DNA of 64,000 nt from Dictyostelium discoideum (Eukaryota). The stretch covers positions 2,304,001-2,368,000 of the forward strand of contig CM000155.2 of the NCBI GenBank assembly GCA_000004695.1. Direction: 5' to 3'. Under the pieces are notes generated by a model that was not told where the DNA came from, made no database searches, and saw only the letters and a list, made by a program, of their open reading frames with translations. Shown piece after piece: positions 23,501 to 26,731 of the stretch (positions are counted from its first letter, which is position 1; every line of letters begins with the position of its first letter). The position numbers and the translations under genes are program-made.

Positions 23501-26500
23501 TCCACTCCAATGGAAGTTGATAAAGAATCTAAATCTACTTCCTCAAGTGAAAAACAATCTATAGAGATAAAAGAAGAGAAAGAATCTGAAAAGAAACCTC
23601 AAGATAATGATAATGCCACAGAAAATGGAGTTAAATCACCATCTACAACTAATACTGATTCAAAGTTAACTTCACCTTCTACAGCAACCACAACTACTAC
23701 CACTACCACTACAACAACACCTACTACTACTACTGCGACAACAGTTAAACCATTATCATTAAAGAATCCATGTAAAGAATCTGCTTATTATTTAGTAATT
23801 GTAAACGAAGATTTTGGTAGTCAACAAATCCTTAGAACCTATCCAATGAGCGATGTAAATCAAGGCTCTACAGATGTTTGTTTACCAGGTTTTGCAAATA
23901 AATACGAGTTTAGAGTTATTCATTCAAATCCATCCAATAACTCTTTCTCCTTTGTTAGTGAACCACTCAAATTTACATTAACAAGTAATTTAATTTGGCA
24001 TCAAGCTGATTTCCCTTCATTCTCAACTAGAGTTCAAACTGTATTGACTCGTTTAGTTCAAATGAGAGCAATTAAACAATTGGTAACCAAATATGGTAAA
24101 CAATTAACTAATCTCTCCATCCCATACATTTCAAGAGGTCCTATTCCAACATGGACTCAAGAAAATGATAAGAGTTTATTAGTTGGTGTCTATAAACATG
24201 GTTATGGAAAATATCCTGAAATTTTCTTTGATCCTGAATTAGATTTACTCTCAAATGTAAAGAGAGGTCAACCAAATACTTTTTCACCAAATCCAACTAG
24301 TAATAATGATCAAAATAATAATAATAATAATAATAATAGCAATCAAAACAATACTGATAATATTGATAGTGATAGCGGTAATAATAATAATCAAAACTCT
24401 TCAACTAATCAACAACAACAGCAACAGCAATCTGAAAAGATTCCATCATCCGAATCATTAAGAAGAAGAATCCAAAAGGTTACTGATCAAATCTTGAAAA
24501 AAGAACATAGTGATATGATCATGAAACAACATATGGCTCAACAAAAACTACATCAATTACAACTACAACAACAAATGAAAGAACAAAAAGAAAAAGAATT
24601 TCAACAACAACAAAACCAACCAAACCAACAAAATCAACCAGGTCAACAAAATCAACAAACTCAACATGGTCATAGTGGTAGTCATAAACAAAAATACTCA
24701 AATGATTACTTTGACGATTTCGTTAGTAGATCAGATTTTAGTGGTGGTGATATTTCCGATGTGGAAATTGATGATTATATTAAATCAAAGAAAATGAAAC
24801 ATTCTCATAATAGTTCAAATAATAATAGTAATAATAACAATAATAGTAATAGTAATAATAATAATAACAATAATAATAGTAATAATAATAATAACAGTAC
24901 TAGTAATAGTGGCTACAATAGCGGTAATAATAATAACTATAGCAACAATAGTAGTAATAATAATAACAATAACAATAATAATTCATTCTTTGGTAATAAC
25001 AATAGTAATAACAATAACCCATTCTTTGGTAATAATAACAATAATAATAATAAATTACCATCATTAGATAGAATGATAAATAAGAATGATAATAGTTCAC
25101 ATAGACATCATTCATCTTCAAAACACAGTAAAAGTCAATCTTCAAATCAAAGTTCAAAACCATTTAGCAATAGTAGTAGTAGTAGTAGTAATAATAATAA
25201 CAATTATAATAATAATATTAATAATAATAATAACAATAATAACAATAATAATAATAATACAAATAGTAATATATTACAAATTAGATTACAATGGGAAAAT
25301 AGAATTTATCCAATTTCAATACCAATTTCATCAACAATGGAATCATTAAAGAGATTGTTTATTGTTAAAGCTGGTATTCAATCAGTTGTTTCAAATACAG
25401 GTGAAGATGCAAATAATATTCTTAGATTCTATTATGATGGTCAAGTTGTGCCAATGGGTGTTAAAGTTGTTGATTATATTAGAGATGATCCTCGTATTAC
25501 TGCAGTTTGGGAATCTAAATGGAAGACTATTCAAGTTAAAGGTTTTGAATTTGAAAGTGTTTTAATGAATGTTCAAGATGATACATTATTGGAAGATATT
25601 GTCAAGGCATACTTTATCAATTCTCATCCACCTTATGACATAAAGAATCTTAGAATTGAAGTAAATGGTAAAGTATTGCCATTAAACTCTGATATTGGTA
25701 CCAACAAGATTAAAAATGAATCATACCTATTGATTGTTCCATCACAAGATATTATTCGTGTTTTCGTTACACCATCTTGGGGTGCTGAAAAAGAAACCTA
25801 TGCACTTCATAAACAAACAACAATGCTCTCAAAATTAATGGATTCTTTCTTGAAAAAACATTCATTACAACCAAAACAAATCGATTTCTATATACCACGT
25901 TTAAATTGTTCCCTCTCTGGTGATAAAAACCCTTCACAAATGGGTATTGAAAACGAAACAGAGATTACAGCTATCCTTTTATTGGTACGTGTCGATGCAT
26001 CTTACAATGGTACTACAGTTCCTTACTTTTTAAGTACAACCACTTCTTTTGAATCATTATTCCATCGTTTCTGTGAAAAAGTTAAAATTGATAGGAAATC
26101 TACAATTTTCTCTTATGAAGGTAAACGTTTATTAAATGAACAAACTCCTGAAGGTATTTATATGAAACCTCATGCAAGTATTACTGTAATTAATCATGGT
26201 TCTAATAACAATAACAATAATAATAATATTAATAATAATATGATGGGTAGTGGTATTGGATCACCATCAATTTCAACATCACCTCAACAACGTCAACCAA
26301 ATCTTCCATTATCTCCTTCTCATCATCAACAATCACAACAGCATCACCAACAACAACCATTATCTCCACAACGTCAACAAATTCCAAAATCAACACAACA
26401 AAAATCTCATCAACAACATCATCAACAACAACAACAGCAACAACAACAAAATCATCACCATCATCATCAATCACCACAACAACACCAATTACCAAGTATT

Positions 26501-26731
26501 ATCGAAGTTGAGGTTAAATTAGTAGGTCAAGATGCTGGTAGTTTTATTAAAATGCACACCCAAAATCCATTCCCACTCGATATCTTAATGGATAAATTTT
26601 GTCAAGAACATAACCTCATTAAAAGCCGTACTCTTTTCACTTACAAAGGTCAAAAATTAAATCCAAATGATACTCTTGCAACAATAAATTTACAAGATCA
26701 AGATATTATTCAATGTCATTTGTTAAAATAA
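17369..26731 (+). CDS. chdC: CHD-family chromodomain-helicase-DNA-binding chromatin remodeler, ~3,100 aa. Exon 1 17369..20464, intron 20465..20591, exon 2 20592..26731, with an apparent +/-1 frame break between ~23435 and ~23480.
   Basis: Seen: tandem chromodomains (...IRFLALFKNKSYRSVRWV... and ...FYLCKWKTLPHEKSTWEDENIL) lie upstream of SNF2 motif I (LADEMGLGKTIQSIAFLQYL) and motif II (ILDEGHRIKN). The GTAAGT...AG intron restores the frame (TEHSIILTGTPLQND). Helicase-C motifs follow ([42 protein letters not shown]), then the CHD C-terminal signature IPTWTQENDKSLLVGVYKHGYGKYPEIFFDPELDL, and four ubiquitin/SUMO-like folds at the extreme C-terminus. ORF 20637..23564 and ORF 23510..26731 overlap in different frames across a homopolymer-rich stretch (see findings). 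The symbol chdC is a tentative size-based guess (the largest of the three D. discoideum CHD genes is ~3,070 aa); the CHD family call itself is firm. Confidence 0.8.

Follow-up and report, generated by a model that had tools for sequence, protein, structure and literature searches.

Why would a chromatin-remodeling ATPase end in a row of SUMO-like folds? The question is raised by a 64,000-nucleotide stretch of Dictyostelium discoideum DNA (assembly GCA_000004695.1, contig CM000155.2, positions 2,304,001 to 2,368,000 of the forward strand), referred to here as the window, in which the gene at 17369-26731 (+ strand) encodes a remodeler of the CHD family, ChdC or its orthologue. The last exon of this gene ends in five tandem beta-grasp units, of which four lie back to back (A-D, 25271-26194) and are followed by a linker and the fifth (E). 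There is very little doubt in our minds that these are five non-conjugatable SUMO-like domains (SLDs, in the sense of Novatchkova et al. 2005, PMC549199) on a CHD protein.

The five SUMO-like domains

The units and the linker before the last of them are given below, with residues numbered in the open reading frame (ORF) 23510-26731, hereafter ORF3, from the methionine at 23510 as residue 1.

25271..25516, + strand: SLD-A, residues 588-669; diverges most among the units and has a long alpha1-beta3 loop
25517..25744, + strand: SLD-B, residues 670-745 (WKTIQVKGFEF...YLLIVP); the best conserved unit across species, with 53% invariant columns
25745..25978, + strand: SLD-C, residues 746-823
25979..26194, + strand: SLD-D, residues 824-895; SUMO-like
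26195..26497, + strand: poly-N/Q/H/P linker between D and E, ~100 residues here versus ~10 in Acytostelium subglobosum
26498..26728, + strand: SLD-E, residues 997-1073, the unit nearest SUMO, ending in ...DIIQCHLLK and followed by the stop codon (26729-26731)

As a whole, ORF3 matched the Pfam family Rad60-SLD (PF11976) with an E value of 1.6e-21 (76.4 bits in four matched stretches, above the gathering threshold of 23.8 bits) and the ubiquitin family with 4.5e-10. When the units were submitted alone, unit E (Rad60-SLD, 2.8e-9, 37.1 bits) and unit D (ubiquitin, 4.8e-6; Rad60-SLD, 6e-6, 26.4 bits) scored over the cut-offs, units B (6.9e-4, 19.8 bits) and C (3.3e-3, 17.7 bits) matched Rad60-SLD under its cut-off, and unit A gave no Pfam match. 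Searches of PDB sequences with phmmer returned mostly SUMO, at ~2e-6 for unit E against SUMO2/3 and 5e-5 for unit D against SUMO. Against human SUMO2, unit E has 32% identity over 68 residues, and against SUMO1, unit D has 23% over 61; pairwise identity between the five units is 7-17%. Units A to D abut without linkers, and the A/B junction (WESKWKT.QV.GF) is invariant in the three species that make up our conservation comparison, namely the window, A. subglobosum and Cavenderia fasciculata.

Alignments of each unit from these three species were compared with a small SUMO alignment by hhalign, and all five matched in the same register, with values of 93% for A (C-terminal half only), 30% for B, 95% for C (over 63 columns), 96.9% for D and 98.0% for E. 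A joint MAFFT alignment likewise fitted all five units to the secondary-structure pattern of SUMO. The AlphaFold2 model of A-D (318 residues, three-species alignment) had a predicted local distance difference test score (pLDDT) of 80.3 and consisted of four units with the beta-beta-alpha-beta-beta-3(10)-beta order that defines the fold; pLDDT was 68-89 in both A and B, 59-80 in C and 87-91 in D, and the orientation of the domains relative to each other is unreliable because the predicted template-modelling score (pTM) was 0.43. Single-sequence AlphaFold prediction of residues 583-1073 (pLDDT 35.7) did not yield a confident structure for unit E or for its placement relative to D. In Foldseek, the best match of the A-D model was linear tetra-ubiquitin (1.4e-21), which spanned all four units, and the best matches per domain, structural as well as by sequence, were to SUMO itself and not to the ubiquitin-like domains (Ubls) of USP7. 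Overall, these comparisons support a ubiquitin-like beta-grasp of the SUMO/Rad60-SLD type for the units. Chance similarity or a low-complexity artefact was rejected on the strength of the E values, the structure and the conservation in orthologues.

A first-pass annotation of the same sequence had proposed four Rad60/SUMO-like beta-grasp repeats from 25260 onwards. The nature of the fold is upheld, as Pfam, hhalign, AlphaFold2 and the SUMO matches agree on it. The outcome named there as contrary to the proposal, a lack of beta-grasp matches with a known CHD C-terminal domain in their place, was not what we found, and BRK, CHDCT2 and DUF4208 were rejected as candidates since none had a Pfam match at E<=1. 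The number of units had to be corrected to five, unit B (25517-25744) having been missed between the first two repeats, and the start at 25260 is out of frame with ORF3, in which unit A begins at 25271. The four repeats correspond to ORF3 residues 588-657, 748-802, 836-885 and 997-1069, and their limits were drawn too tightly: the first lacks beta5 (ITAVWE), the second covers the first two thirds of unit C, and the third lacks both beta1 and beta5 of unit D. The F.Y.G..L block that had been assigned to each repeat is the beta3-beta4 motif of SUMO (RFLFEGQRI in SUMO1); units A, D and E have it, and B and C show a degenerate form.

In none of the three species (window, A. subglobosum and C. fasciculata) is beta5 of a unit followed by Gly-Gly or a protease-type junction. 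The C-terminal Gly-Gly that Ulp/SENP processing exposes in a conjugatable SUMO modifier is thus missing, and the units are therefore neither released nor conjugated, i.e., they are fixed SUMO-like domains.

The CHD host gene and its orthologues

The host gene is made up of three long ORFs on the + strand (ORF1, 17369-20473; ORF2, 20637-23564; ORF3, 23510-26731), and the parts that precede the array are as follows.

17369..20464, + strand: exon 1, long acidic/poly-N N-terminus, chromodomain and first half of the SNF2 ATPase (Pfam Chromo 2e-11, SNF2-rel_dom 9.4e-36)
20465..20591, + strand: intron 1 (GTAAGT...AAAG), nearly pure A/T, read from the sequence
20592..23460, + strand: exon 2, second half of SNF2 (Pfam, 1.2e-24), Helicase_C (Pfam, 3.6e-26), conserved middle region and a K/D/E-rich DEKSKD repeat tract
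23453..23475, + strand: -1 frame change from ORF2 (ends 23564) to ORF3 (frame open from 23453) in an A-rich, coding-like K/E/D tract
24053..24250, + strand: SLIDE/CHD1-type helix-turn-helix (HTH), the CHD DNA-binding part (Pfam HTH_CHD1_Hrp3 3.1e-6, 27.5 bits with a cut-off of 27; SLIDE 2e-4)
24272..25270, + strand: low-complexity poly-N/Q/S linker of ~330 residues, from the translation, not alignable to the A. subglobosum orthologue

A textbook intron (20465-20591) links ORF1 to ORF2, and its removal recreates the SNF2 motif in which ...KSIK is followed directly by TEHSIILTGTPLQN.... Exon 2 (20592..23460) is colinear with the A. subglobosum orthologue, and so is the conceptual protein of ~3,079 residues with the 2,399-residue A. 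subglobosum protein over its whole length. The first-pass annotation had placed the repeats and the CHD part in the same ORF; this applies to the SLIDE/HTH_CHD1 region (ORF3 residues 182-247), which shares one uninterrupted ORF with the array, and not to the chromodomain and the ATPase, which are encoded by the two upstream ORFs.

The passage from ORF2 to ORF3, which overlap in different frames at ~23453-23564, is less regular. Among 52 frame-restoring GT..AG pairs at this junction (67-75% A+T, weak donors) no credible intron was found, and a spliceosomal intron was rejected as the cause of the frame change since the candidate pairs, unlike intron 1, lack Dictyostelium intron character. The one-base change is due either to an assembly error, to an indel that is real or specific to the strain, or to an atypical structure of the gene. 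Just upstream of it, at the end of ORF2 (~23250-23420), the hexapeptide DEKSKD/NEKSKD is repeated in tandem in ~10 copies. The window is very A+T-rich (GC 14-36%) and its encoded proteins are rich in poly-N/Q, which is typical for Dictyostelium. The next downstream gene begins at 27144 on the + strand, past an A/T-rich intergenic stretch of ~400 bp, with a signal-peptide-like start (MNKSILLLVLVIVSIIGSIDS...).

Among named matches, the ATPase was closest to CHD8/7/6/9 (53-56% identity), with CHD1 and PICKLE types close behind, in a homology listing of fragments <810 residues only that is informative for a CHD6-9-like affinity alone. Two of the features of CHD subfamily III, a chromodomain (2e-11) and a CHD6-9-like SNF2 ATPase with Helicase_C, are present; a third, BRK, was not found in ORF3 at Pfam E<=1. 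D. discoideum ChdC (DDB_G0293012) has been described as the largest CHD of the organism, class-III-like in that it clusters with CHD6-9, with SANT/SLIDE, without BRK and with a long, homopolymer-rich C-terminus, and a SUMO-like sequence in ChdC was mentioned (Platt 2013, PMC3848188). The window gene fits this description point by point, and it is a dictyostelid class-III-like CHD remodeler, ChdC or its orthologue. The placing of the repeats at the C-terminus of a remodeler with a CHD6-9-like ATPase is supported (Platt 2013, PMC3848188).

Because the SUMO-like sequence had been noted in 2013, the core point is not a new discovery, and SLDs in the orthologues are already part of automatic Pfam annotation; our literature search retrieved no further paper linking ChdC or any CHD with SUMO-like domains. 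What is added here is incremental, i.e., the count of five units, structural support for the three weak ones, conservation in both dictyostelid orders, the absence of Gly-Gly and a Ubc9-type signature in unit D (see below).

When 1.84 billion representative proteins were searched exhaustively with HMMER, 38 matches were obtained, and the 17 non-dictyostelid ones that were scanned with Pfam or looked up (the weaker rest being excluded) were without CHD or SNF2; the matches linked to a CHD were dictyostelid only. The CHD-SLD architecture thus appears to be restricted to Dictyostelia in this search. The first-pass annotation had called it unusual, which the search bears out within its limits; as a novelty, it is preceded by Platt 2013. 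The 17 other multi-SLD matches were poly-SUMO-like proteins, large SLD arrays or proteins combining SLDs with HMG boxes. Six of the large-array proteins (P0006, P0010, P0013, P0016, P0017 and P0028) are transcriptome predictions of 2,200-2,900 residues with many Rad60-SLD units, and four of these six (P0010, P0013, P0017 and P0028, with P0010 from Biecheleria cincta) also carry one or two HMG boxes. An SLD array on a DNA-binding protein, independent of CHD, is apparently an undescribed architecture.

The closest orthologue was A. subglobosum XP_012755273.1 (P0002), with E=2.6e-96 and 54% identity to the A-D region, and Pfam finds Chromo, SNF2, Helicase_C, HTH_CHD1 and Rad60-SLD in it. In the A. 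subglobosum genome, one uninterrupted ORF of 1,562 residues encodes the second half of the ATPase (Helicase_C), the CHD1-type HTH (SLIDE region) and all five SLDs, and owing to this single ORF the CHD-SLD fusion is physically certain in a second species, one that belongs to the other dictyostelid order. Identity to the Acytosteliales orthologues is 46-52% in A-D and 58-63% in E, and the flanking linkers are unalignable. Given that the units share only 7-17% identity with each other and 46-63% with their orthologues, they are old, individually constrained and not decaying.

For C. fasciculata, the match was XP_004355573.1 (P0003; E=5e-81, 47% identity to the A-D region). Its five units lie on GL883021.1 (locus L002, 13109-14268); the reading frame shifts near 14045, between D and E, and the public model, named 'chromo domain-containing protein', joins A-D to an unrelated N-terminus of 945 residues and ends before E. 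We could not tell whether the gene has split here, whether this is a second copy, or whether the assembly or annotation is at fault. A second C. fasciculata protein, XP_004350160.1 (P0009, 113 residues), matches the end of SLD-B and the start of SLD-C at 56% identity. A word-indexed protein search with A-D or the three-species profile had a single match, a 359-residue model from D. dimigraforme. The underlying locus (JBTAPM010000006.1, L001, 10222-11482) is a frameshifted partial copy of the ChdC 3' end, from SLIDE to SLD-C, with collapsed poly-N tracts; it is annotated as a 359-residue hypothetical protein, is without an ATPase in the surrounding 10 kb and resembles a fragment of a pseudogene. 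Neither the C. fasciculata nor the D. dimigraforme locus showed synteny with the window. Dictyostelid genomes seem to have acquired copies of parts of the array more than once.

Possible roles of the array

In Smt3, D68 (equivalent to SUMO1 E67) is a key residue for non-covalent binding to the backside of Ubc9, and SLD2 of Esc2, Rad60 and NIP45 uses the same surface and acts as an E2 cofactor (PMC7849368). The residues at the Smt3-D68 position are, in the order window / A. subglobosum / C. fasciculata:

SLD-A: D / N / N
SLD-B: N / R / N
SLD-C: not acidic
SLD-D: E / E / D
SLD-E: K / N / N

Only unit D is acidic there in all three species; in the window the residue is E870 (codon 26117-26119), within a SUMO1-like FxYEGKRL....TP. 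A second pattern concerns the beta2-alpha1 segment, which in SUMO forms the binding groove for SUMO-interacting motifs (SIMs). Invariant columns are enriched in this segment (49/88 versus 68/220 elsewhere, Fisher p=8.5e-5), as exemplified by the invariant stretch GS.IKMHT.NPFPL.ILMD.FC..H of unit E, and among them are charged helix residues expected to lie at the surface.

These features suggest an array that would work as a docking platform imitating SUMO or a poly-SUMO chain, like the SLDs of Rad60, Esc2 and NIP45, with a low-complexity spacer that ties its permanent SUMO-shaped surfaces to the ATPase and to the DNA-binding region of SANT/SLIDE type. Unit D would be the best candidate for Ubc9 backside binding, as the sole unit with a conserved acid at the Smt3-D68 position, and ChdC would then be an E2 cofactor on chromatin, comparable to Esc2. 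The strongly conserved beta2-alpha1 faces of units B-E would bind SIM-like beta-strand motifs, either of partners or of ChdC itself. Since SLDs are mimics and not readers of SUMO, it is more natural that SUMO-binding partners or Ubc9 would be recruited to ChdC than that ChdC would be recruited by SUMO, although SUMO-dependent recruitment had been the role suggested in the first-pass annotation. We infer, with a confidence that falls somewhat short of an even chance, that the SLDs may dock Ubc9 or SIM partners in this way, as mimics of SUMO.

A scan of ChdC for canonical acidic-flanked SIMs found no conserved canonical motif, only a loosely conserved acidic-hydrophobic patch. This patch, DDPLDQIEIPIADDDELRVQKVLTQRLFKKKF, is encoded at ~18860-18990 (full-length residues ~499-540), just before the chromodomain, and aligns with ...SDIVISLTADEADL..VVDDIVDL..KILTSKLFKGKF of A. 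subglobosum, where canonical SIM-like cores occur; the window version is non-canonical. The patch could be an intramolecular partner of the SLDs, and we regard it as a lead only.

Several observations weigh against SUMO-mimic docking. The terminal unit E, which is the most SUMO-like and sits at the place of SLD2 in the RENi proteins (Rad60, Esc2 and NIP45), lacks the acidic backside residue. Part of the beta2-alpha1 enrichment is due to the hydrophobic core that every beta-grasp fold has, and the basic residues that line the SIM groove of SUMO are mostly replaced in all five units, so that canonical SIM binding is not assured. No CHD parts were found in the 13 kb upstream of the C. fasciculata array, and apparently the SLD module is separable from the motor or the C. 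fasciculata copy is a duplicate. The sample comprises three species, the inter-domain geometry of the A-D model is unreliable (pTM 0.43), and the mechanism as a whole is predicted from the sequence and the model.

The main rival, which we rate as rather unlikely, is an Ubl array of the USP7-HUBL type, i.e., a structural or regulatory scaffold for partners or for ChdC's own ATPase or DNA-binding domain (autoregulation) that has no link to the SUMO machinery. Such a scaffold would fit the five tandem Ubls at the end of a chromatin enzyme, the large loss of basic residues from the SIM groove and the invariant A/B junction, which suggests rigid packing between domains. The USP7 HUBL was also among the Foldseek matches (3e-12 to 1e-9), but despite these significant E values the template-modelling (TM) scores were 0.14-0.25 and the identities 6-11%, which does not amount to homology with HUBL. 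Further points against it are that SUMO, and not the USP7 Ubls, is the best match per domain in structure and sequence, and that the SUMO/Ubc9 backside acid is conserved in unit D.

An alternative explanation is that the array replaces the BRK domains of metazoans as a lineage-specific partner-binding module of class III CHD proteins, which would target ChdC to transcription factors, its likeness to SUMO being historical. The array occupies the same C-terminal position as BRK, no BRK was found in ORF3 at Pfam E<=1, and Platt 2013 reported ChdC to be without BRK though SANT/SLIDE is present. This substitution is compatible with SUMO mimicry, but it leaves the persistence of SUMO-specific features (32% identity of E to SUMO2, the acid in D) unaccounted for, and we hold it to be improbable as an explanation of its own.

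The last possibility, a cleavable poly-SUMO precursor or the decaying, functionless relic of a fused poly-SUMO gene, could draw on the existence of poly-SUMO and poly-SLD proteins (the next-best matches), on the frameshifted, fragmentary array copies in D. dimigraforme and on the 113-residue C. fasciculata fragment, but it is effectively refuted by the sequence: a cleavable precursor was rejected because no Gly-Gly or protease-type junction follows any unit in three species, and units that are 7-17% identical to each other yet 46-63% identical to their orthologues across two dictyostelid orders are constrained, not decaying.

Taken together, a five-SLD CHD tail that would serve SUMO-mimic docking is the best explanation as a whole, and we consider it about equally likely to be right or wrong. 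A more far-reaching version of SUMO-mimic docking, which we think unlikely, is that ChdC carries a built-in, non-removable poly-SUMO mimic that would recruit charged Ubc9 (through unit D, like SLD2 of Esc2 and Rad60), multi-SIM factors such as SUMO-targeted ubiquitin ligases (STUbLs) and co-repressors, or both, to repositioned nucleosomes, thereby coupling ATP-dependent remodeling directly to local SUMOylation; this link would date from the common ancestor of Dictyostelia. We know of no description of such a coupling for any CHD, and to our knowledge the large C-terminus of ChdC has never been dissected. Dictyostelium depends on ChdC for nucleosome spacing and for its aggregation and development (Platt 2013, Platt 2017), and human CHD7/CHD8 disorders are modelled with this protein. 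Should Ubc9 or SIM proteins dock on the array, ChdC would be the first remodeler to carry its own SUMO signal; if they do not, the array would be one more lineage-specific partner-binding tail. In either case, knowledge is refined and no new kind of system is added.

Comparison with known systems

The RENi family (Rad60 of S. pombe, Esc2 of S. cerevisiae and mammalian NIP45/NFATC2IP) offers the closest parallel, as its members are chromatin-associated and have C-terminal SLDs without Gly-Gly that are preceded by a polar low-complexity region (PMC549199). Pfam places the ChdC units in PF11976 Rad60-SLD, the family that contains RENi. Esc2 in particular shares the layout of a DNA-binding domain, a low-complexity spacer and C-terminal SLDs, and its SLD2 holds the backside of Ubc9 (PMC7849368). 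The differences are that RENi proteins carry two SLDs on a small adaptor, whereas ChdC carries five on a CHD ATPase of ~3,080 residues, with no homology outside the SLDs, and that the Ubc9-type conserved acid lies in the fourth unit of ChdC and in the terminal unit of RENi. With five SLDs, chromodomain, SNF2, Helicase_C and SLIDE, ChdC does not have the RENi architecture and is not a RENi orthologue. The RENi proteins are linked to Smc5/6-Nse2 or STUbL in genome stability, whereas the likeness of ChdC to them is one of sequence and layout; the ChdC array plausibly works like the RENi SLDs. Novatchkova et al. also list a two-SLD protein of D. discoideum under an old accession, and it could not be told whether this is the ChdC tail or a separate gene (PMC549199).

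The HUBL region of USP7/HAUSP resembles the array in that five consecutive beta-grasp domains stand at the C-terminus of a nuclear enzyme that acts on chromatin proteins. HUBL activates the USP7 catalytic domain through a C-terminal peptide. Its Ubls are not SUMO-like, they have no detectable sequence relationship to the ChdC units, and USP7 is absent from the best 60 sequence matches listed. SUMO, poly-SUMO and polyubiquitin are closer in form, with unit E at 32% identity to SUMO2 and the A-D model superposing unit by unit on linear tetra-ubiquitin; in contrast to SUMO and poly-SUMO, the ChdC units lack Gly-Gly, are highly diverged from each other and are embedded in a large enzyme.

With metazoan CHD6-9, ChdC shares the ATPase (53-56% identity to CHD8/7/6/9), the chromodomain and the SANT/SLIDE-type region, whereas the metazoan proteins end in BRK domains and ChdC ends in SLDs. 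The dinoflagellate proteins that combine an SLD array with HMG boxes (e.g., Biecheleria cincta EP00930_P020856), which are transcriptome predictions only, are not orthologous to ChdC, lack an SNF2/CHD motor and have many more units. Similar to ChdC, they join many Rad60-SLD units to a DNA-binding module, and they look like an independent case of an SLD array on a chromatin protein.

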